DNA from: Escherichia phage vB-EcoS-XT34
Sequence record: OR767160
DNA: 50,596 nucleotides
Strand: one strand, 5' to 3'
Shown here piece by piece: positions 5,714 through 50,576 of the stretch. A program made the translations under genes and the position numbers. Under the pieces are notes generated by a model. That model saw only the letters and a list, made by a program, of their open reading frames with translations, was not told the origin of the DNA and did no database searches. Position 1 is the stretch's first letter. Every line of letters begins with the position of its first letter.

Positions 5714-5756
5714 TAGCACGAATTGCTAAACCCGCTCCGGCGGGTTTTGTTATAGT
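5714..5756 (+). promoter_or_regulatory. box element (TAGCACGAATTGCTAAA) plus -10-like TATAGT
   Basis: canonical box, spacer contains the GC hairpin cccgc-tccg-gcggg, 22 nt to TATAGT. Confidence 0.5.
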
Positions 5757-6345: not shown

Positions 6346-6385
6346 CACTTTTTGTTAAAACTCATAATCGGGGTGGCTGTATAGT
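6343..6385 (+). promoter_or_regulatory. box element (TAGCAC-TTT-TTGTTAAAA) plus TATAGT and CATCGAAACGA leader
   Basis: box overlapping stop, 22 nt to TATAGT, leader CCCATCGAAACGAACGAGGA. Confidence 0.5.
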
Positions 6386-6415
6386 TACCCCATCGAAACG
6401 AACGAGGAATCAGAA

Positions 6416-15110: not shown

Positions 15111-15148
15111 TTGCCATGAATAGCTCAAGCGCTTAACACAAAAAGCTG

Positions 15149-15176
15149 TTGACCGTTTAACAAAAAATGCTATTAT
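15149..15176 (+). promoter_or_regulatory. candidate strong promoter for the major capsid gene (TTGACC-16-TGcTATTAT)
   Basis: -35 TTGACC at 15149-15154, extended -10 TGcTATTAT ending at 15176. Confidence 0.5.
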
Positions 15177-15223
15177 AGACTAGTGAACTTAATCACGTCT
15201 TTCTAAACCAAAAGGAACAAATT

Positions 15224-16183
15224 ATGACTATGAAACTCGACTCTTTCGAACAGAACATGATCACTACTGGTATGCGCCAGCTTGGCGTTAGCGGCAACAA
15301 GGCCGACCAGCTTGGCATCTGGACCGTTAAACAGATGACTCAGTTGCTTAAGCGTCAGTATGAAGCGGCTTACCCTGAAACTTCCGCTCTGGCCCTGTTC
15401 CCTGTCACTACTGAGATTAGCCCGACCGCTAACCTGTTCGAATATCTCAAGTTTGACGGCGTGACCATGGCGAAGATTATCGCTGACTACACCGACGACC
15501 TGCCGACTGTTGACGCTACTCACAGCCTGGAATCTGGTCGAGTTCACCGCCTCGGTAACGCGTGGCTGATTTCTATCGACGAGATCAAAACTGGTGAAGC
15601 GCTGGGTTCAAGTTTGTCAGATCGTAAAGCGACTCTGGCGCGTGAAGGTCACGAAACACTTGTTAACCAGTTGGTTTTCAAAGGCTCCAAGCCTCACAAA
15701 ATCATCTCTGTTTTCGACCATCCGAACATCACCCGTGTGACTTCTGTTGCTGGCGCGTGGGGCGATGCAGAGAAAGCAAGCGAAGAACTGACCGACCTGA
15801 TCGAGAAGATGGAAACCCTGACCAATGGTCAGCACAAGATCACCGACATCGTTATCCCGCCGTCTCAGCGTAAATTGCTCGCTAAGCGTATGCCGGAAAC
15901 CACGATGAGTTATCTGGACTGGTTCAAGTCTCAGAACGGTGGCATCACCATCTCTTCCATCTCCGAACTGGAAGACATCGACGGCGCAGGCACTAAAGCT
16001 GTACTGGCGTATGAGAAAGACCCGATGAACATGAGCATCGAGATTCCTGAGCCTTTCAACATGCTGCCGATGCAGGCGAAGGATTTGCACTTTAAAGTCC
16101 CGTGCACCTCCAAGACCACTGGTCTGATCGTATATCGTCCGCTGACGATTATCATGCTGGTTGGCCTGAAAGCTACCGCGTAA
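15224..16183 (+). CDS. major capsid protein
   Basis: 319 aa, own promoter and terminator, position after scaffold and decoration genes. Confidence 0.75.
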   Translation: MTMKLDSFEQNMITTGMRQLGVSGNKADQLGIWTVKQMTQLLKRQYEAAYPETSALALFPVTTEISPTANLFEYLKFDGVTMAKIIADYTDDLPTVDATHSLESGRVHRLGNAWLISIDEIKTGEALGSSLSDRKATLAREGHETLVNQLVFKGSKPHKIISVFDHPNITRVTSVAGAWGDAEKASEELTDLIEKMETLTNGQHKITDIVIPPSQRKLLAKRMPETTMSYLDWFKSQNGGITISSISELEDIDGAGTKAVLAYEKDPMNMSIEIPEPFNMLPMQAKDLHFKVPCTSKTTGLIVYRPLTIIMLVGLKATA

Positions 16184-18247: not shown

Positions 18248-18919
18248 ATGGCACTTCCTAACGGTTCCCAAGTCTTTATTGAGCAGACCCGAGCAGCCAC
18301 CGAAATCGAAGCAACCGCAGTGAGTAACGCGGAAAATCCGGTGGCGACTGTTGCGTCAACCACTGGCATTGTGAAAGGCGATTACGTCCTGGTGATGGAA
18401 AGCGTATGGGCTGCATTTAAAAACCGCGTAATGCGCGTAAAAGAAGTGGTTAGCGACACATCAATCACGCTTGAAGGCGACAAGAACACTTCCACGGCTG
18501 ACCTTAACAAGTTCCCCGCTGGCGGCGCCTCCACCTTCGTTAAGATCGAAAGCTGGATTGAGATTCCATGCGTGAGCGACATCGCAAAATCTGGTGGCGA
18601 GCAGCAGTTCTATACCAAGCAGTGTCTTTCAGATGACCGTGAAAAGCAGATCCCGACCTTTAAATCTGCGACGTCCATCGCGTATACGTTCGACTTCGAC
18701 TACTCCAACCCAATCACGCAGCTTCTGATTGGTTACGACGAAGACGGCAAGACGCGCGCTATGCGAATGTTTGTACCGAAGGCAAGCTATCCGATCCGCA
18801 CCTTCTCTGGCACGCCATCTTTCGATGACATCCCTAACACGGTGATGAACGAAGATGAAACGACCGTCCTGACCATCTCGCTTGATGGCAAATACACGCA
18901 CATGAAAGAATCTGAGTAA
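18248..18919 (+). CDS. major tail tube protein
   Basis: 223 aa, followed by terminator and then the G/GT chaperone and tape measure genes (lambda V-G-T-H order). Confidence 0.6.
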   Translation: MALPNGSQVFIEQTRAATEIEATAVSNAENPVATVASTTGIVKGDYVLVMESVWAAFKNRVMRVKEVVSDTSITLEGDKNTSTADLNKFPAGGASTFVKIESWIEIPCVSDIAKSGGEQQFYTKQCLSDDREKQIPTFKSATSIAYTFDFDYSNPITQLLIGYDEDGKTRAMRMFVPKASYPIRTFSGTPSFDDIPNTVMNEDETTVLTISLDGKYTHMKESE

Positions 18920-25864: not shown

Positions 25865-28800
25865 ATGATTAAAAATAATGTAGTGACGGGCCGAAAGGGT
25901 GGCAGCAGCAAGCCGCATACCCCACAGGAGATGGAAGATAACCTGATCTCAATCAACAAGATTAAGGTTTTGCTCGCCGTTAGTGATGGCGAGGTTGATG
26001 ATAATTTCTCATTAAAGGACTTGTATCTTAATGATGTTCCTGTAATTGCACCTTCCGGAGAGGTTAACTATGAAGGCGTAAAAGCTGAGTTCCGCCCAGG
26101 TACGCAGACACAGGATTACATCAAAGGCTTCAACGACACGGCGGCTGAGTTCACTGTTGGTCGTGAATTGAAAACAACGACTCCTTACGTGATCTCGGTA
26201 ACGAATAAGCAGCTATCAGCAGTCCGCGTAAAAATCCTGATGCCTCGCGGCGTTACCACGAAAGAAAACGGCGACATGGTTGGCGTGGTCGTGAAGTGGG
26301 CCGTAGATATGGCGGTTGATGGAGGGAGCTACCAGGAGGTTTTATCTGACGTCATCGATGGTAAGACGATTAGCGGATATGACAAGACAAAGCGTATTGA
26401 CTTGCCGTCGTTTAATAGCCAAGTCCTGCTTCGGGTTCGTCGTGTTACTCCTGATTCGAATAATGCAAGAGTTGTTGATGCGATCAGCATTCAGTCATAT
26501 GCGGAAGTTATTGACGCTAAATTCCGTTATCCTCTGACTGGTCTTGTTTACGTTGAGTTTAACAGCGAGCTGTTCCAGCAGATCCCAAGAATTAGCACGA
26601 AAAAGAAATGGAAGCTCATCAACGTTCCGAGCAACTATAATCCAGATCTTCGCGAGTATAACGGCACGTGGGATGGTAGCTTTAAAAAAGCATGGTCAAA
26701 TAATCCGGCGTGGGTGCTTTATGATTTGATCACCAATCAGCGCTACGGACTCGACCAACGGGAATTGGGGATTGCAGTTGATAAGTGGTCACTATATGAC
26801 GCTGGTCAATACTGCGACCAGAAAGTGCCAGACGGTCACGGCGGAACAGAACCTCGCTATCTTTGCGATGTGGTTATTCAATCTCAGGTTGAAGCGTACA
26901 ATCTGGTGCGAGATATTTGCTCAATATTCAGAGGGATGAGCTTCTGGAACGGCGAGAGCCTTTCAATTGTCATCGACAGACCTAGAGAGGCGTCGTATAT
27001 TTTCACTAACGATAACGTCGTTGATGGCTCATTTGCCTATACGTTCGCAAGTGAAAAAAGCATGTACACAACCTGCAACGTCACGTTCGACGACGAGCAG
27101 AACATGTACAGCCAGGACATTGAAGGGGTATTCGACCTTAACGCCTCATTACGCTTCGGTCATAATCCGACAAGCATCACGGCGATCGGGTGTACTCGAC
27201 GCAGTGAAGCGAATCGACGGGGCCGTTGGGTTCTCAAAACAAACCTTCGCAGCACGACGGTGAGTTTTGCTACTGGCCTTGAGGGTATGATTCCGATGAT
27301 TGGCGACGTGGTAGCAATCGCTGATAACTTCTGGTCAAGTAACCTGACGCTTTCGTTATCAGGTCGTGTGATGGAAGTGTCAGGCCTGCAAGTGTTCACA
27401 CACTTTAAGGTCGATGCGCGCGCTGGTGATTTCATTATCGTGAACAAGGCTGACGGAAATCCGGTGCGCCGGACGATTTCAAAAGTTTCTGCGGACGGGA
27501 AAACCATTGAGCTTAACGTTGGATTCGGTTTTGATGTTCAACCCAACACAGTGTTCGCAATCGACCGCACTGATGTGGCCTTGCAGCAATACGTTGTAAC
27601 CGGAATAACGAAGGGCGACGGAGACGATGAGTTCACGTACAGCATTACGGCAGTTGAATACGATCCGAACAAATACGACGAGATTGACTACGGCGTAAAT
27701 ATTGATGACCGACCAACCAGTATTGTAGATCCTGACAACATGCAGCCACCTAAAAACATTGTCGTTTCATCATACTCTAGAATTGTGCAGGGAATGAGCG
27801 TAGAAACAATGGTGGTAGGATGGGATAAAGTTCAGTACGCAAGCAAGTACGATGTGCAGTGGCGAAAGGATAACGGCAACTGGATGAACGTGCCGCGCAC
27901 AGCAAGCTCAGAGGTTGAAGTGGAAGGTATTTATGCGGGTAATTATCACGTACGCGTAAGGAGTATCTCAAGCGGTGGAAACACGTCTCCATGGTCTGAA
28001 GTTGTCAGCGTCGGATTGACGGGTAAGATTGGGAAGCCAGATAAACCAACAGTCATAACTGCATCTGACGACCAGGTGTTTGGGATACGGGTTAAATGGG
28101 GATTCCCTGAAGGCTCTGGAGATACCGCGTACACTGAGTTGCAGCAGATACCAGATAATGGAGCCGGAGGTCACACAGGCGAGGAGAATGCAAGCCTGTT
28201 AACAATGATACCATACCCTCAGTACGAGTACTGGCACTCTACACTACCGGCAGGATATGTGAACTGGTACAGGGCAAGATTGGTAGACAGGATTGGTAAC
28301 GCCTCTGACTGGTCTGACATTGTTCGCGGAATGGCAAGCGATGACGTTGAGTCAATAATTGGAGAAATAAAGGTTGATATCGAGAATTCCGAGGGGTTTA
28401 AGTACCTACAGCAGAACGCCATTGAGTCAAACGGAGCTATTCAGGCGCAGGCGGAATCAATTCTTGAAAACGCACTTGCAAACGACACTGACGTGCGACG
28501 AATGACCAAGGAAAACGGCAAGCGTAAGGCTGAATACGTTAAGGCGGTGAATCTTATTGCTGATGAAACTCAGGCTCGCGTAGAGGCTCTCACGCAGCTT
28601 AAAGCACAGATTGATGATGAGGTTGTAGCTTCCATAACTGAAGTTCAGACGGCACTAGCCACCGAAACGGAAGCTAGGACTACTGCCGACACTGCTTTAA
28701 GCGCTCAGATTGGCGACACGCAGGCCGCACTGAATGAAAAACTTGACTCATGGGTAGATGCAGAATCAGCTGGCGCTCAGTACGGCGTTAAATTGGGCCT

Positions 28801-29230
28801 CAAATACAATGGGGTTGAATATAGCGCAGGGATGAGCATGGAACTTGTTGGCACTGGTGGGAATGTTCGCAGTCAATTCATTTTTGACGCAAACAGATTC
28901 GCGATCAGTAACGGTATTGGCTCTGGTTCCGGTCAGTGGCAGCTCCCCTTCGTTGTAGAGAACGGAAACGTAATCATCCAAAGCGCGGTAATTGGCGATG
29001 GATCAATCAGCAACGCGAAGATTGGTAACTTCATTCAGTCCAATAACTACGTAGCTGGAAGTACGGGATGGAGGATTGATAAGTCTGGTAACGCTGAGAT
29101 TCGAGGTAAACTGTACGCCAGCAGTGGTGAATTCGCCTTCAACGGAACAAACAATACGGTACAGATTAACGGAAACGGAATCACTGTTAACTTACCAGGA
29201 GGAGGAAGAATTGTTGTGGGTACGTTCTAA
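25865..29230 (+). CDS. central tail fiber / host specificity protein (lambda J-like)
   Basis: 1121 aa, last and largest gene of the tail module. Confidence 0.8.
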   Translation: MIKNNVVTGRKGGSSKPHTPQEMEDNLISINKIKVLLAVSDGEVDDNFSLKDLYLNDVPVIAPSGEVNYEGVKAEFRPGTQTQDYIKGFNDTAAEFTVGRELKTTTPYVISVTNKQLSAVRVKILMPRGVTTKENGDMVGVVVKWAVDMAVDGGSYQEVLSDVIDGKTISGYDKTKRIDLPSFNSQVLLRVRRVTPDSNNARVVDAISIQSYAEVIDAKFRYPLTGLVYVEFNSELFQQIPRISTKKKWKLINVPSNYNPDLREYNGTWDGSFKKAWSNNPAWVLYDLITNQRYGLDQRELGIAVDKWSLYDAGQYCDQKVPDGHGGTEPRYLCDVVIQSQVEAYNLVRDICSIFRGMSFWNGESLSIVIDRPREASYIFTNDNVVDGSFAYTFASEKSMYTTCNVTFDDEQNMYSQDIEGVFDLNASLRFGHNPTSITAIGCTRRSEANRRGRWVLKTNLRSTTVSFATGLEGMIPMIGDVVAIADNFWSSNLTLSLSGRVMEVSGLQVFTHFKVDARAGDFIIVNKADGNPVRRTISKVSADGKTIELNVGFGFDVQPNTVFAIDRTDVALQQYVVTGITKGDGDDEFTYSITAVEYDPNKYDEIDYGVNIDDRPTSIVDPDNMQPPKNIVVSSYSRIVQGMSVETMVVGWDKVQYASKYDVQWRKDNGNWMNVPRTASSEVEVEGIYAGNYHVRVRSISSGGNTSPWSEVVSVGLTGKIGKPDKPTVITASDDQVFGIRVKWGFPEGSGDTAYTELQQIPDNGAGGHTGEENASLLTMIPYPQYEYWHSTLPAGYVNWYRARLVDRIGNASDWSDIVRGMASDDVESIIGEIKVDIENSEGFKYLQQNAIESNGAIQAQAESILENALANDTDVRRMTKENGKRKAEYVKAVNLIADETQARVEALTQLKAQIDDEVVASITEVQTALATETEARTTADTALSAQIGDTQAALNEKLDSWVDAESAGAQYGVKLGLKYNGVEYSAGMSMELVGTGGNVRSQFIFDANRFAISNGIGSGSGQWQLPFVVENGNVIIQSAVIGDGSISNAKIGNFIQSNNYVAGSTGWRIDKSGNAEIRGKLYASSGEFAFNGTNNTVQINGNGITVNLPGGGRIVVGTF

Positions 29231-29258: not shown

Positions 29259-30203
29259 TTAATACATATCTGGGAGGTAAGGTAGTGGCGTTGATATTGT
29301 TACGTCAGGTCTGTTTCCGATCTCATATCTTACAATCCTCGATCCAGTTCCTGAGCGAACATAACCATTGCTCATCACGACTCCCTTGTTCCTTAACTCC
29401 TTGTAAGCCCGTATTGCTCTTGTGTTAAATCCACACCTGAGTATTGGGAAGTAAGATTCACCAATGTATTGATTGCTACCTGATAGGTTTATGAATCCAG
29501 AAACAACCAATGGCCTCGTAACGGTTGATAATGTGCAAACACCATTTGAGTTAAATATGTTCAGTCCAGGACCAGGGGTTGGAGCGACCATCTGGAAGAT
29601 AATCAAATCCATAGTGACACTTCCTGGTGTATCACCAGTATCTTCAGTGTTTATGTTTGTACATATCAGCTGGTTACTACCATTGTATTCAACTGATACA
29701 CCTGAGTTATTCCACTTTCCAAATGGTATCCCATAAATTGGAAGGGTGTATGTATTGGTGAAAGATATCCTCTGAGCAAACTTGCATACCAATAGCCTAT
29801 CAGTAGTGGTTATCGAAGTAAAATCAGTACTATTCGCAACATAAATACCCTGTCCCGTAGATGCTCTTAGTACCTCAATAACAGTACCAGAAAATTGAGT
29901 TATACGGTCAGAATATCCATTCTCATATCCAATCGATATTGTTCCGCTTGATGCTGTTGACGAGAATCCATTTATGTAATAAATCTCAACCCCTCTATCA
30001 AGTTCGAATGAGTATGCACCATTGTTAGGGATTAGGAACCTTGAAGCTCCTTCATTACCCTGAATTGAAAAATTTTTGCTAAATCCACCACTGGATACGT
30101 TGAAATTTCCAGCGAAATTCAATGCCCGCATCCCTGCGGTTATTGTCATTGGCTTTCTTCCGTCATTGAGGTCTATATAAATACCTTGAGCCATTAATTC
30201 CAC
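29259..30203 (-). CDS. candidate receptor-binding or tail-tip accessory protein
   Basis: 314-aa Gly/Ser/Thr/Asn-rich ORF co-transcribed downstream of a lipoprotein gene and convergent with the J-like gene. Confidence 0.4.
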
Positions 30204-30424
30204 TCCTTAGAACCATAATCACGAACAGAGCCACTGGAACCTTTAATACCATCGTAGCGAATGTCAATTTCACCAGCCGCAACAACTACGCCATCTTTCC
30301 ATTTAGATACGCACACGCCGCTTGAGGACGTTGCACACCACCCATCAGGGCGAGGGCCAGAAGAACAACCAACTGTCATGATCAATGCTGCTGCGATGAT
30401 TGCCGATTTGATTAAGTTAGTCAT
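30194..30424 (-). CDS. small lipoprotein, candidate superinfection-exclusion protein (Cor/Llp-like)
   Basis: 76 aa, signal peptide with lipobox LIMTVGC-S, driven by a box-type element. Confidence 0.55.
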
Positions 30425-30464
30425 TTTGTTTTCCTTAGTAAGTATTTTTCGTTTCGATGAAGTA

Positions 30465-30508
30465 ACTATACATGCAACTATCGTCGGAGTCTTTAACTAT
30501 TCGTGCTA
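30465..30508 (-). promoter_or_regulatory. box element variant (TAGCACGAATAGTTAAA) plus TATAGT and TTCATCGAAACGA leader, leftward
   Basis: read on the minus strand upstream of the lipoprotein gene; spacing and leader match the + strand boxes. Confidence 0.45.
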
Positions 30509-32753: not shown

Positions 32754-33200
32754 ATGCCACACGTAATCACTGGTCAGATCCGTAAAGCACCATTCACCAA
32801 AGAAGGCAGCAACAATAACGGGCGTTGGAAAATGTACGCCGTCGAACTTTCAGAGCGAATGAAGATTCGAAATCAAAATGGAGAGGATGAGGCTGTTTAC
32901 AGCAACTACCGCGCCACGTTCTTCGCAAAAGAAAACGTTATGCAGTGGTATGATGAAGCGTTCCAGGAAGGTAAGGTTGTATCAATTTCTGCCGACACAC
33001 TTCACTTAGCATCGCGCCAGGGAAATGACGGTACTGTGTATGTGACCGCCGAAATGATCCGTCCTCAGTTGCAATTCAGCCAGCGTGAGCCAGCGCAGCA
33101 GAGCCAAGGCCAGCAGCAGCAACGCCAGCAGCCTCAGCAGCAACAACTCCAGCAACAACCGCAGCAGCAAAACCAGTTCGATGATGACATCCCGTTCTGA
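32754..33200 (+). CDS. ssb: single-stranded DNA-binding protein
   Basis: 148 aa, Gln/Pro-rich linker and acidic C-terminal tail ending DDDIPF. Confidence 0.8.
   Translation: MPHVITGQIRKAPFTKEGSNNNGRWKMYAVELSERMKIRNQNGEDEAVYSNYRATFFAKENVMQWYDEAFQEGKVVSISADTLHLASRQGNDGTVYVTAEMIRPQLQFSQREPAQQSQGQQQQRQQPQQQQLQQQPQQQNQFDDDIPF
33092..33175 (+). repeat. CAG/CAA-rich low-complexity repeat encoding the SSB poly-Gln linker
   Basis: repeated cagcag/cagcaa units. Confidence 0.6.
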
Positions 33201-33210
33201 TATAAAAGAT

Positions 33211-33234
33211 AAAGCCCCTTTAGGGGCTTTTTTA
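33211..33234. terminator. bidirectional terminator between SSB and tailspike genes
   Basis: aaagcccc-ttta-ggggcttt with flanking A and T tracts. Confidence 0.6.
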
Positions 33235-35517
33235 TTAACCAATAACTGACATTCTTGAGTTGGCAAATGTATAAGCATCAGTTTTGTTAGGGAACTGAGC
33301 CAGGAAGTAATCACTAATCCTTACAACACCACCATTAGTTGACTGGAAACGAAGCCTTGCCGTTCCTGAAATAGATGCCTGGCCAACTCCATATGTATGA
33401 ATCCAGTTACCATTAGGCTTGGTATAAATCTCTCCAATAAGGATTGAATCAGCAACTGCAGCTGAAACATCCCCACTAACAACTTTAAGACTACAACCCC
33501 ATACAACCTGGTAATACTGAGCAATGTTGGCAGTTGGAACATCTAAATACAGAGTGTATCCTGCAGGAATCGATAGCTGAGCGCAGCTGTCACTAAGAAC
33601 GCCATCAGCAACAGCTGTTGCATCAACAGTTCCCGTGCCCAAAAATCGCCACGGACCAGCGTCAGAGAACGTCTTGGCATGTAAAACGCCGCCAACAGAT
33701 GACCTTCTAATCCTGCCCTTAATATCTGTAGCTCTTACACTTGCGCTCAATCCTTGACTTAGTGGGAATGAGTTATCAGCTATAGACTCAACAAGTATGT
33801 CACCACCTACGTAACCGCCGATTATCAAATCTCTGGCTATTAACCTGCTACCAGCGTCAATACTAATATCGTAAACACCTGATGCATTATCAATTCGACA
33901 GTTTTTAGTTAGAAGGGTTGAGCCTTTTAACTCAATGTTGTTTAAGTAGCAATTTTCAGCAACAACCATTGGCATATTCTCTAATTTTAGCTGTCTTGGT
34001 TTCTGCGATACGCCATCAACAATAACAGCCTGTTCAGTCGCAACTCCCTCAAGCCATACGTTTGAAATTGTTGGAGTAACAGTGGGTGTAACACCATTAC
34101 CTTTAAAGTAAATCCCACCGCCAGGGCAAGCCTCAAATGTACAATCCCTTATAGATACCCCATCAACCCCACTACCCTGCAAAGACCCACCAAGTGTTGA
34201 GCCATCAATGTAAATACCGTAAGTGTGAATGCCAGCAAAGTGGCAGTCCCTCCATGTATCACTACCAGTGTGCATTGCAACGTCCGATCTTGCTATGTGT
34301 CCATAGTTACACTCAAGGTAACTACAATGTTGGTAAGTGTTACCAATGTTTCCCTTTGGTTTCCTTAAGCCTATATCAAGGCTATCGAACGCAATATGAT
34401 CAAAGTTCCATCTGCCATCAGTATTAGACTGACCGAAAGTTATGCCGATGCCATCCCTTGTACCAATCTCACCTTGAATAAGGAAGTTTGAGGCGTGACG
34501 ATACTGCCACAACCTTGATGACTCAGTAAGAGTAAAGCTTGCCTGGTTGGGTCCTGGGTTGAACCTTGCTCCGTAACCTACACCAATGAGGTTAGCACTC
34601 CCAGAATAATACTCACCAGTGTAAATACCACTGGTGATAAGCATGTCGTTACGCTCTTCAGTTGAGTTTATCGCAGTCTGAAAGTCGGCGTAGTTACCAG
34701 ACCTGTTAATATCATTAATGTTCTGAGTTAGAGTCCTCTCACCAATCCTTACATTGTCACCACCAGATGAAGATAAAAGCTGATCCCTTAATGAGTTATC
34801 GCCAACGGCAACCCATGCGCCTGGAGCTACACCACCAGTTGATTCTGGAGTTGAATTTTCTGGTATTGTCTTTGGTAATGGGCCATTCCACAAATAAGAT
34901 GAAACATCATTACCATTAAAATAAAAAACCTGCTGAGTTTTTGATTCAATTGTCCCGCCACCATCAAATGATAACACAAGAGCGCCAGAAACTGAGTTTG
35001 CAGCGTTCTGAGCTACTCCGGCAAAATAAGAAGAACTATTTGCCTGCTCTGTAGCTATATCTTTATCAGATGAAACCTGGATGGCATCAGCAGCAACCTG
35101 CGCAGCATCAGTGACAACTTGCTGATACTGAGTGTTTACCTGATTTACTTCTTCCTTGAACTTAACACCATCAAACTGATTGAATGCATCAACTGCCTCA
35201 GCAACCTCAGTTTCACGAGATTGGTAGTAACGCAATGTTTCAGCCACATCCTGAGCCAACCCCTGGACGGTAATACCATCGTGAGCAAGAATTGAGTATT
35301 GAGTTCCGGTTGGTGCGGTAAATCCTTTGTCGTTAAAAACTCGAATTTCTGTATCGCTGATAATTTCAGCAATCGTAACAATGCTTGCTGGCGTGGTATT
35401 GAAAATCATTGTTGCTCCAACGCGAATTAGCGTTAGTGGTTGACGCCAGGTAGTCCCAACGCCGTTAACTGTACCATCTGCCGCTAAAGAGGCAGTTCCT
35501 GCATCATAAATAGCCAT
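33235..35517 (-). CDS. tail fiber / tailspike with probable beta-helix domain (candidate depolymerase)
   Basis: 760 aa, Gly/Ser/Thr/Asn-rich repetitive composition with interspersed Cys motifs such as CTFEACPGGGIYFKGNG. Confidence 0.55.
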   Translation of the reverse strand: MAIYDAGTASLAADGTVNGVGTTWRQPLTLIRVGATMIFNTTPASIVTIAEIISDTEIRVFNDKGFTAPTGTQYSILAHDGITVQGLAQDVAETLRYYQSRETEVAEAVDAFNQFDGVKFKEEVNQVNTQYQQVVTDAAQVAADAIQVSSDKDIATEQANSSSYFAGVAQNAANSVSGALVLSFDGGGTIESKTQQVFYFNGNDVSSYLWNGPLPKTIPENSTPESTGGVAPGAWVAVGDNSLRDQLLSSSGGDNVRIGERTLTQNINDINRSGNYADFQTAINSTEERNDMLITSGIYTGEYYSGSANLIGVGYGARFNPGPNQASFTLTESSRLWQYRHASNFLIQGEIGTRDGIGITFGQSNTDGRWNFDHIAFDSLDIGLRKPKGNIGNTYQHCSYLECNYGHIARSDVAMHTGSDTWRDCHFAGIHTYGIYIDGSTLGGSLQGSGVDGVSIRDCTFEACPGGGIYFKGNGVTPTVTPTISNVWLEGVATEQAVIVDGVSQKPRQLKLENMPMVVAENCYLNNIELKGSTLLTKNCRIDNASGVYDISIDAGSRLIARDLIIGGYVGGDILVESIADNSFPLSQGLSASVRATDIKGRIRRSSVGGVLHAKTFSDAGPWRFLGTGTVDATAVADGVLSDSCAQLSIPAGYTLYLDVPTANIAQYYQVVWGCSLKVVSGDVSAAVADSILIGEIYTKPNGNWIHTYGVGQASISGTARLRFQSTNGGVVRISDYFLAQFPNKTDAYTFANSRMSVIG

Positions 35518-35542
35518 AATTGTAAATCCTTAATTTAGTTAA

Positions 35543-35557
35543 TAGCACGATTTGCTA
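35543..35557 (+). promoter_or_regulatory. orphan box element (TAGCACGATTTGCTA) between tailspike and primase genes
   Basis: palindromic box with no correctly spaced -10 in either orientation. Confidence 0.35.
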
Positions 35558-35583
35558 ATCGCAGTATACCATCTTTCAGGAAT

Positions 35584-35606
35584 AAAAAAACCCGCCGAAG
35601 CGGGTA
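35584..35606 (-). terminator. rho-independent terminator (leftward) after primase
   Basis: minus-strand cccgc-ttcg-gcggg followed by TTTTTTT. Confidence 0.6.
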
Positions 35607-35610
35607 ATTG

Positions 35611-36552
35611 TTATGAATACTTATCTATCAGATCCTGCGGCGTATATAGCTTTCGCTCAAGTCCCATCTTGAAATTTCCACTGTTCGGCACGACAACTTT
35701 TAAATCCCTCTCGTCAGCCATGTAAAGCGTTCGCAAATCATCCGCTGTACACGCTACTCTCAACTCCCGATCGCCATGATAGCGATAAGCAACAATCTCA
35801 AGGTTCTCAGGGGAGAAAGTCACCCACACTTCCTGACTGGTCGCCATCTTCACACGATAACCATCAATCAGATCGCTTGTCATATATATAGCTGCATCAG
35901 CCTCGCCACTCCCCAGCTTAACCACTGAGCCGCGAGAATAATCACGCGCAAGGAAAGTGTATTCGCCATTATCATAAGCAAACATGACGTTACACATATC
36001 CTCATCAATTCCGTCATGGTGGACCATGTAGCACGGTAGTGCGTGTATTAGCTCCTCAGTGCCATTCTGACGCACTTTTACGCCAACATCATACGAATCC
36101 TCAGTTAGGCACTCATACACGCTTAAATCGGTGCTCTCGCGCTTTTCTGTGCGCTCCATTACAGCCACGCACGACTCATGATCCGCCATCTTGCCAAGGC
36201 CTTTCTCCGGTACGCGTGATACCCTGCGGTAAGCCTTCGACTTATAATCCTGTGGCACTTTGCCAAGGAATCGACCGAGAATATTAATCACTTCACTGTA
36301 AGGCTCACCAGTCAGCTTCATCATCCAGCCAACACCGGAGTCGTTACCGCACTGGTTACAGATTGCTCCACCGTCACCAGGGGAGTTAATGTTATCAGTC
36401 CAGCGGAAGCGATCAGATCCTCCACAGTGAGGGCACATCTGGTGCTTCTTATTGAACACGATGGACTGCAAACCACAAATTGACTGTAAGGCTTCTCGCC
36501 ATAACCCCTTCATATATGGCAGAACTTCTTCTTTCTGATACACCTCATTCAC
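35611..36552 (-). CDS. DNA primase (zinc-binding plus Toprim-like)
   Basis: 313 aa with CPHCGG..CNQCG zinc-ribbon motif near the N-terminus. Confidence 0.55.
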   Translation of the reverse strand: MNEVYQKEEVLPYMKGLWREALQSICGLQSIVFNKKHQMCPHCGGSDRFRWTDNINSPGDGGAICNQCGNDSGVGWMMKLTGEPYSEVINILGRFLGKVPQDYKSKAYRRVSRVPEKGLGKMADHESCVAVMERTEKRESTDLSVYECLTEDSYDVGVKVRQNGTEELIHALPCYMVHHDGIDEDMCNVMFAYDNGEYTFLARDYSRGSVVKLGSGEADAAIYMTSDLIDGYRVKMATSQEVWVTFSPENLEIVAYRYHGDRELRVACTADDLRTLYMADERDLKVVVPNSGNFKMGLERKLYTPQDLIDKYS

Positions 36553-36604: not shown

Positions 36605-37078
36605 TTATTCTTTAGCTTTCCGTGCTGCTTCGTTTGCTGCTTTAATTTTTCGCCATGATCGACATTCAGGCTTAGTGGCTAACTCAGCCTCAGTTACTAC
36701 GCGCAGCATGTGACGCTTTTTGCAACGCAGCGTCAGCGGCTTACCGTTCCCATCGAATTGCAGATCCGGTCGGCAGAATGTAGCGCGGAAGCCTTCGCCA
36801 GTTCGCTTATATCGGTTGTGCGCCAGTTGAGCACCGCGCGCCGACATCATGCCGCGTTTAAACCACTCTTCGACCGCCTGGCGAGTAACTTTTAATTGCT
36901 TCGCCATGTTCGCCTTGCTGCCGTAGAACTCAAATACAATATCAAGTCGCGCCCTTAATCCGGCCTTTACTTCATCCTTGAGAACATAGTAACCTGACGG
37001 TCGCTTACGCTGCTTCTTATCTTCCGTGCGGATAGTTCCGTTGTTACCGTTAAGAGTACGCTTATCAGTTGCATTCAT
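36605..37078 (-). CDS. helix-turn-helix DNA-binding protein (candidate transcriptional regulator)
   Basis: 157-aa basic protein with HTH-like segment MAKQLKVTRQAVEEWFKRG; a box element lies in its own upstream region. Confidence 0.5.
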   Translation of the reverse strand: MNATDKRTLNGNNGTIRTEDKKQRKRPSGYYVLKDEVKAGLRARLDIVFEFYGSKANMAKQLKVTRQAVEEWFKRGMMSARGAQLAHNRYKRTGEGFRATFCRPDLQFDGNGKPLTLRCKKRHMLRVVTEAELATKPECRSWRKIKAANEAARKAKE

Positions 37079-37091
37079 TTTATCACCTCAA

Positions 37092-37133
37092 TAGCATTTT
37101 TTGTTAAAAGTCATTACGATTTGATGGTAGTAT
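37092..37133 (+). promoter_or_regulatory. box element variant (TAGCA-TTTTT-TGTTAAAA) plus TGgTAGTAT, in a divergent region
   Basis: 21 nt to a -10-like TAGTAT upstream of the helicase gene; the same palindrome is 11-25 nt upstream of the divergent HTH gene start. Confidence 0.45.
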
Positions 37134-48433: not shown

Positions 48434-48469
48434 TTTGTTTGCCTTTTTGTGTTTCGTTTCGATGAGATC

Positions 48470-48512
48470 AATATACAGGAAAAGCCCCGAAGGGCTTTAG
48501 CAATTAGTGCTA
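48470..48512 (-). promoter_or_regulatory. box element (TAGCACTAATTGCTAAA) plus TATATT and CTCATCGAAACGA leader, leftward
   Basis: minus-strand box TAG is the stop codon of the methyltransferase-like gene; 22-nt spacer with hairpin agccc-ttcg-gggct. Confidence 0.5.
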
Positions 48513-50024: not shown

Positions 50025-50061
50025 TTTTACTTCCTCTTTGTGTACTTCGTTTCGATGAAAT

Positions 50062-50495: not shown

Positions 50496-50531
50496 GATAA
50501 TTTCCTTTAGTGCGTGTCGTTTCGATGAGGT

Positions 50532-50576
50532 AATAATAGCGAATCACACCTGATCGGTCATTAGCAAAAAGTGCTA
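50532..50576 (-). promoter_or_regulatory. box element (TAGCAC-TTT-TTGCTAA) plus TATTAT and CTCATCGAAACGA leader, leftward
   Basis: minus-strand box near the right end of the window, same spacing and leader as the other leftward copies. Confidence 0.45.

Follow-up and report, generated by a model that had tools for sequence, protein, structure and literature searches.

A predicted lateral tail fiber of the tailspike type in Escherichia phage vB-EcoS-XT34, with an inverted repeat at its putative promoter

Introduction

In phages of the family Drexlerviridae, the gene for the lateral tail fiber is found in a locus whose neighbors are conserved genes for recombination and for primase/helicase (BASEL paper, PMC8594841, S1C Fig legend), and its conservation is confined to the 5′ end (PMC8594841). 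According to the same study, the lateral fibers bind the O-antigen as the primary receptor, and the J-like tail tip carries a small receptor-binding protein for the terminal porin, encoded just downstream of gpJ. A trimeric protein that will be used for comparison here is Depo32 (gp32) of Klebsiella phage GH-K3, a 'KP36likevirus'; this protein is a depolymerase acting on the K2 capsule (Depo32 paper). A 21-nucleotide (nt) direct repeat, aaATAGCACnnnTTGnTAAAA, has been described for the phages TLS, T1, Rtp and Rogue1 (Kropinski et al. 2024, PMC11447400). It is oriented along transcription and precedes the start codon by about 76 nt, and its function is an open question for the TLS authors, who suggest a stoperator, an enhancer site or an UP element (PMC11447400). 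In this paper we describe a gene for a 760-amino-acid (aa) protein located between the SSB and primase genes of Escherichia phage vB-EcoS-XT34, together with a copy of this repeat just upstream of it. The entire 50,596-nt stretch of XT34 DNA (record OR767160) will be referred to as the window. A search of the literature found no paper on phage XT34.

The product of the 760-aa gene is very probably the lateral (side) tail fiber, with the architecture of a tailspike, of a siphovirus related to T1; this is a joint estimate for the entire explanation developed below. As such, the fiber is a previously unannotated tailspike-type protein of a known Drexlerviridae class, in its standard place.

Results and Discussion

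Identity and location of the gene

A leftward gene for a 760-aa protein between the SSB and primase genes had been reported in a preliminary description of the window, and the open reading frame (ORF) and both of its neighbors are confirmed (Table 1). The protein matches a 'hypothetical protein' of phage vB-EcoS-XT34 with 100% identity. Its N-terminus, MAIYD.GTASLA, is common to homologs that start at the same Met residue. It matches many 'tail fiber protein' families of PHROGs, one of which spans residues 114–758 (E 7e-131), and many others cover residues 1–180 only. No model for the fiber was found in NCBIfam. Gly, Ser, Thr and Asn residues account for 33.8% of the protein. This is the second highest value among the 39 ORFs of the window with 150 aa or more, for which the median is 23.9%. 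The enrichment in these residues noted previously is therefore real, but the protein is repetitive, as was also stated, only in the sense of the rungs of a β-helix.

Phage XT34 can be assigned to the T1-like phages of the family Drexlerviridae. Each half of the window matched hundreds of such phages with the program Megablast, and the closest relatives of both halves are vB_EcoM-p111, PH1062 and ESCO41 (genus Nouzillyvirus), with nucleotide identities of about 88–94%. The SSB/primase interval contains a minus-strand gene in both ESCO41 and JeanPiccard (Bas02), which encodes a 'tail protein' in the former and, as bas02_0034, a 'lateral tail fiber protein' in the latter. The T1 tail fiber gene ST26 is located between ST27 and the primase gene ST24, and only the small hypothetical ORF ST25 intervenes before the primase.

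The placement of the XT34 gene outside the tail module, which had attracted attention in the preliminary description, is genuine. However, this position is the standard lateral-fiber locus of the Drexlerviridae, and is not unusual. The syntenic arrangement of this locus, from the recombination/SSB genes to the primase/helicase genes, is present in XT34, and most of the gene is hypervariable on a conserved backbone. Only nt 43–455 of the query, in the 5′ part of the gene, match other phages with Megablast, despite the high identity of the backbone to its relatives. As a fiber gene among DNA-replication genes is normal for this family, the finding is largely ordinary.

Domain organization of the fiber

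The structure of the monomer was modeled with AlphaFold2 from 44 sequences, with a mean predicted local distance difference test (pLDDT) score of 78. The order of the domains in the model is the same as that in the Depo32 paper: anchor, helix bundle, connection domain, β-helix and carbohydrate-binding module (CBM). The domain boundaries are listed in Table 1.

The conserved N-terminal anchor of the Drexlerviridae lateral tail fibers is present in XT34. Residues 1–245 share 62% identity with the ESCO41 fiber (BLASTP), and nothing is aligned beyond residue 245. A search of PDB sequences matches residues 1–166 to Depo32/DpK2 (PDB 7vyv/7lzj), with an E value of 2e-33, and about 90 homologs in the database share only the first 30–35% of the protein. 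In the helical segment following the anchor, Ala, Gln, Glu and Val together account for 51% of the residues. This segment corresponds to the helix bundle of Depo32, which extends to residue 185 of that protein.

The Tail_spike_N domain, a small β domain in the model, is located ahead of the β-helix, the arrangement expected for a tailspike or depolymerase. Residues 180–260 match the tailspikes TSP1, TSP3 and TSP4 of phage CBA120 in the PDB sequence search. The core of the protein is a right-handed parallel β-helix, modeled as many short strands in succession, with pLDDT values mostly between 85 and 97. A Pfam Beta_helix match to residues 415–559 is below the threshold. The best structural matches, obtained with the program Foldseek, are enzymatically active tailspikes. 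The tailspike-like β-helix fold that had been proposed from the composition is thus seen in the predicted structure, and the PF18668 domain and the tailspike matches agree with it. For the C-terminal domain, Foldseek finds a match to a CBM22 module at rank 50, with a template modeling (TM) score of 0.57 on the target.

A mosaic receptor module and its possible enzymatic activity

Residues 243–758 share 65% identity with a 635-aa E. coli protein that carries the P22 head-binding domain (PF09008), and nothing is aligned before residue 243 (BLASTP). The gene for this prophage tailspike is at the position of P22 gene 9, after the genes for ejection proteins and arc/ant, and adjoins an integrase gene at a tRNA-Arg gene. 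The same module is found in the podovirus Bp4/PD38 (62% identity), the T7-like LM33_P1 family (about 40%), ES17 (about 38%) and Kagunavirus tailspikes (about 37%). Certain other T1-like fibers carry a related module, with about 35% identity.

Residues 243–758 are thus a horizontally exchanged module, consisting of the β-helix and the β-sandwich, that is also found on P22-like prophages, in podoviruses of the N4-like and T7-like types and in siphoviruses of the genus Kagunavirus. The receptor module of XT34 has been swapped in from this common enterobacterial tailspike pool. The module boundary near residues 240–245 is a natural swap point, and could therefore be of use for predicting or engineering host range. 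Of 5426 complete E. coli genomes, 4 carry DNA related to the XT34 allele, and the allele is therefore rare. An attempt to find the target O-antigen through these four prophage-bearing genomes, namely 19AR0254, P393-F10, 47-1826 and LF4-1, gave no serotype in the output.

Seven acidic residues, D381, D458, E462, E490, E521, E529 and D543, are invariant across 20 homologs, down to 37% identity. They are candidates for catalytic or substrate-binding carboxylates, which would be located on successive rungs of the β-helix. Alternatively, the fiber on the virion could bind a glycan with no cleavage, the β-helix serving as a lectin-like scaffold. The invariance of all seven residues in such distant homologs, the enzymatic activity of the closest structural matches, and the presence of a homologous module at the position where P22-like prophages encode their tailspike make this possibility improbable. 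The known tailspikes at that position (P22, Sf6 and HK620) are endoglycosidases. A fiber that both binds and cleaves its glycan is preferred here.

Host recognition by XT34

The fiber is expected to form a trimer and to dock through its anchor near the tail tip. It would bind a specific polysaccharide on the surface of E. coli as the primary receptor, most likely the O-antigen, and would probably cleave it with conserved carboxylates, for which D458, E462, E490, E521, E529 and D543 are the candidates. Binding or cleavage of the glycan would then bring the J-like tip and the 314-aa protein encoded downstream of J to the outer-membrane receptor, probably LptD.

Resistance to JeanPiccard maps to lptD, and LptD is the receptor inferred for that phage (BASEL paper, PMC8594841). 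As the 314-aa proteins of the two phages are nearly identical (Table 1), XT34 most likely finishes adsorption on LptD as well. Three possible host-recognition proteins had been counted in the preliminary description, and all three find a place in this arrangement, the J-like protein as a member of phrog_31 and the 314-aa protein as a receptor-binding protein of the type defined in the BASEL study. The family of the 314-aa protein is labeled merely 'membrane protein' in PHROGs. A 76-aa ORF (30194–30424, minus strand; phrog_4281, with unknown function) overlaps the start of the 314-aa gene by 10 nt, and the two genes are served by a forward box promoter of their own, with the box at 30494–30508.

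Two published statements limit the evidence for assigning the 760-aa protein to a lateral fiber of the virion. The authors of the BASEL study state that the role of the lateral fibers has 'never been directly demonstrated' (PMC8594841), and a cryo-electron microscopy study of T1 saw no density for lateral fibers on the virions. The missing density, together with the location between the SSB and primase genes, would be expected if a gene of the replication module made a non-virion product, either a soluble depolymerase freed on lysis or a protein that has no part in host recognition. We consider such a product highly improbable, as the protein begins with the conserved anchor module found in the family fibers and in Depo32, the locus is the hypervariable fiber locus of the family, and, as indirect evidence, orthologs have been detected as structural proteins. 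The ortholog in phage Sfin-1 (CDS61) is included in a list of virion proteins from liquid chromatography–tandem mass spectrometry, a list that also holds replication proteins, and a 78-kDa structural protein of TLS has been assigned to Gp55, the fiber ortholog. With the lateral fiber as the favored assignment, the 'hypothetical' protein of XT34 can be named a lateral tail fiber of the tailspike type, and the host-recognition set of this phage can be read as a glycan-specific spike, a J-like tip and an LptD-type receptor-binding protein.

The inverted repeat at the fiber promoter

The box located upstream of the fiber gene (TAGCACGATTTGCTA) is one copy of the T1-family 21-nt repeat. Over the full repeat it reads ATAGCACGATTTGCTAAT, with one mismatch to the consensus. 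A literal text search of papers for the box sequence gave no match, and it was the TLS paper that led to the repeat. There are 9 occurrences of TAGCA-N5-TGCTA in the window, compared to 0.03 expected by chance.

The context of this copy is atypical. Compared to the typical repeat of the T1 family, it is inverted with respect to the gene, only 25 nt from the ATG, and downstream of the −10 element rather than 22 nt upstream of it. The box had been regarded as an orphan in the preliminary description. Its position was given exactly, and there is indeed no TAnnnT sequence 17–26 nt downstream on the strand of the box itself. On the strand of the gene, however, an extended −10 element, TGgTATACT, is found 5 nt upstream of the box, and this had been missed. 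The element was also not listed by the promoter scan, because it has no −35 element. Along the gene strand, the stop codon of the primase gene is followed by its terminator (35605–35590), TGgTATACT (35571–35563), a 5-nt gap, the box, the Shine-Dalgarno sequence and the ATG.

This arrangement was compared among 80 related loci fetched with the N-terminal peptide, of which 78 had enough upstream sequence to analyze. The box, with at most one mismatch, is located 11–26 nt upstream of the fiber ATG in 42 of these 78 loci, and is always inverted. All but one of the 42, T1 included, have a TGnTAnnnT sequence 6–12 nt upstream of the box (41/42). The fiber promoter of T1 is complete, with the organization TTGCAA-17-TGaTAAAAT-7 nt-box. 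When ten lineages are aligned, invariant islands are seen at the terminator stem, the TG and TA..A.T positions and the box, and the flanking sequences vary. The Tlsvirus-like and Webervirus-like loci have no box at this position.

A separate extended −10 promoter is therefore predicted for the fiber gene. It immediately follows the primase terminator, which separates the fiber gene from the upstream transcript. Transcription would start at or next to the first bases of the box, so that the box would extend from about −1 to +14. In view of the conserved combination of box and extended −10 element in the relatives, the fiber box is not an orphan. We propose that it is an operator for whatever factor recognizes the repeat.

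The box could also be without function here, as a chance palindrome or as the relic of a forward box promoter that was once aimed at the primase gene. Its directional core is on the plus strand with no −10 element 17–26 nt downstream, and its absence from this position in the Tlsvirus-like and Webervirus-like relatives would fit as well. Nonetheless, the box and the extended −10 element upstream of it are invariant across the ten lineages amid variable flanks, the arrangement recurs in 41 of the 78 loci including T1, only 0.03 copies are expected by chance per genome, and in XT34 as well as in T1 a second inverted copy overlaps the promoter for the major head protein. A functionless box is hence unlikely, and an operator is the preferred interpretation.

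Other roles for the box were examined and rejected. The segment 35557–35500 of the fiber mRNA leader folds with −7.3 kcal/mol (z = −0.39), no better than shuffled sequences, which argues against an RNA hairpin. For the box to drive antisense transcription toward the primase gene, a TAnnnT sequence would be needed 17–26 nt downstream, and none is present in XT34 or T1, nor, by eye, in ESCO41. The consensus of σ54 promoters is TGGCACG-N4-TTGC; by inspection, the two elements are separated by only 2 nt in the box, which also has AG in place of GG.

Other copies of the repeat

There are 18 directional copies of the repeat in XT34, with at most two mismatches, and 15 of them have a TAnnnT sequence 21–24 nt downstream, mostly at 22 nt. 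The −10 elements at these copies are often TGn-extended, and have no −35 element. With the −10 element about 22 nt downstream, the forward box is centered near −42, which is a class-II-activator-like position. The forward copies in T1 show the same pattern of box and −10 element as those in XT34. For the copies at 5714, 41617, 48498 and 50091, the interval from the box to the −10 element contains the terminator hairpin of the upstream gene. A leader motif, (T)CATCGAAACGA, is located 3′ of the −10 element at many of the box promoters (at approximately 6385–6400, 30450–30460, 48455–48470, 50045–50060 and 50520–50535), and may be a shared element of the 5′ untranslated region.

Besides the copy at the fiber gene, an inverted copy is located within a near-consensus promoter (region 15140–15225) that directly precedes the gene for the major head protein (15224–16183, phrog_264). 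The equivalent promoter in T1, TTGACG-16-TGcTATTAT, is found around TAACAAAAAGTGCTA, upstream of ST47. T1 has an extra inverted copy (18835–18849), 22 nt upstream of the start codon of ST40 in the tape-measure chaperone region, and no equivalent of this copy was found in XT34 at up to two mismatches. The presence of inverted copies on the promoters of both the fiber and the major head protein genes suggests that they may act as operators.

A candidate for the cognate factor is a putative 157-aa helix-turn-helix (HTH) regulator. Its leftward promoter is TTGTCT-17-TGtTACAAT (37160–37132). The box at 37092–37106 is in the forward orientation for the divergent helicase promoter, and is also located at about +20 to +34 of the regulator promoter, in the leader of this gene, a layout that is suggestive of autoregulation. 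A search of PDB sequences with the 157-aa protein gave no match. With this result and with HTH matches in Pfam that are all below the threshold, the link between the regulator and the box is speculative. Searches of Pfam, PDB and NCBIfam found no evidence for a factor that binds the box.

A tentative model, which we hold to be possible but rather doubtful, is that the 21-nt repeat is the site of one dimeric factor, for example the 157-aa Cro/YdaS-like protein, that activates from near −42 at promoters without a −35 element and represses when the site is inverted over σ70-type core promoters. The logic of such a dual-effect factor would be analogous to that of lambda CI. If true, the factor would be a previously unrecognized timing switch in T1-like phages, and the model would answer the question that the TLS authors left open. 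The conserved inverted repeat on the fiber and major head protein promoters is the only part of our observations with some novelty, and it offers a testable handle on the repeat.

Neighboring genes

The acidic tip of E. coli SSB is the same as the end of XT34 SSB (...FDDDIPF), which suggests that the phage protein recruits host SSB-interacting proteins. XT34 SSB has no match in Pfam.

Table 1. Coordinates of the fiber gene, its domains and control elements, and other features of the XT34 window
Feature	Position	Strand	Remarks
Predicted lateral tail fiber/tailspike gene, 760 aa (stop codon included)	33235..35517	−	ORF, ATG start; phrog_27367 'tail fiber protein', E 7e-131
N-terminal virion-anchor domain, ~aa 1–83	35269..35517	−	Common to Drexlerviridae lateral fibers; low model confidence, poorly defined
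Long α-helical (helix-bundle) segment, aa 84–174	34996..35268	−	DSSP helices 84–113 and 117–174 in model
Tail_spike_N (PF18668) connection domain, aa 182–240	34798..34974	−	Pfam 58.7 bits, cutoff 25
Module junction, ~aa 240–245	~34783–34798	−	ESCO41 homology stops at aa 245; P22-like prophage tailspike homology begins at aa 243
Right-handed parallel β-helix, ~aa 290–600	33718..34650	−	Presumed glycan-binding and catalytic domain
C-terminal β-sandwich, ~aa 610–742	33292..33690	−	All-β in model, pLDDT 82–96
Shine-Dalgarno sequence AAGGA	35527..35531	−	9 nt before ATG; read from sequence
Box, one copy of the T1-family 21-nt repeat	35543..35557	+ (directional core)	TAGCACGATTTGCTA; inverted relative to fiber gene
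Extended −10 element TGgTATACT	35563..35571	−	5 nt upstream of box, just after primase terminator
Intrinsic terminator 3′ of primase gene	35590..35605	−	6-bp stem, 5 G-C pairs, then T7; conserved in relatives
Primase gene	35611–36552	−	PF08273
SSB gene	32754–33200	+	phrog_44; C-terminal DDDIPF; convergent with fiber gene
Bidirectional terminator between convergent SSB and fiber genes	33211..33230	both	Terminator scan; T1 annotated with same pair
J-like central tail tip protein	25865..29230	+	phrog_31 'central tail fiber J', E 0
314-aa receptor-binding protein downstream of J	29259..30203	−	97.8% identical to JeanPiccard bas02_0024
Putative 157-aa HTH regulator gene	36605–37078	−	phrog_2856; weak sub-threshold P22_Cro/YdaS Pfam matches
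Forward repeat copies	1699, 2456, 3513, 4351, 5714, 6343, 31980, 37092, 40067, 41617, 43857	+	
Forward repeat copies	30494, 45500, 48498, 50091, 50562	−	
Inverted repeat copy	15158–15172		Within spacer and −10 of near-consensus promoter TTGACC-16-TGcTATTAT

Comparison with known fibers and tailspikes

The T1 fiber ST26 and JeanPiccard bas02_0034 occupy the same slot as the XT34 fiber, on the minus strand from Erf/SSB to the primase gene, and share its N-terminal anchor and the bidirectional terminator. The leader of the T1 fiber gene also contains a promoter and an inverted box, as in XT34. In contrast, the fibers of T1, TLS and Bas07 have unrelated, fiber-type tips at their C-terminus (T5 pb1-like, with an intramolecular chaperone), where XT34 has a β-helix tailspike.

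Depo32 (PDB 7vyv, 7vz3, 7lzj) has a homologous anchor and helix bundle, and its domains are in the same order as those of the XT34 fiber. The 'KP36likevirus' group of GH-K3 is now the genus Webervirus of the Drexlerviridae. On the other hand, the β-helices of the two proteins share only about 10–12% identity, and Depo32 targets the K2 capsule of Klebsiella and has an extra helix bundle at its C-terminus.

The tailspikes of P22-like prophages, Bp4/PD38 (Gamaleyavirus) and LM33_P1/ES17 are homologous to residues 243–758 of the XT34 fiber from end to end, and have differing N-terminal adaptors that fit each type of virion. At their levels of identity (65%, 62% and about 38–40%, respectively), the glycan specificity of these modules need not match that of XT34.

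The tailspikes TSP1–4 of CBA120 contain a PF18668-type domain, as does the XT34 fiber. The CBA120, Sf6, P22 and HK620 tailspikes are right-handed β-helix trimers and O-antigen-specific endoglycosidases, to which the XT34 fiber is likened by its monomer model, although their β-helices share only 9–15% identity with that of XT34.
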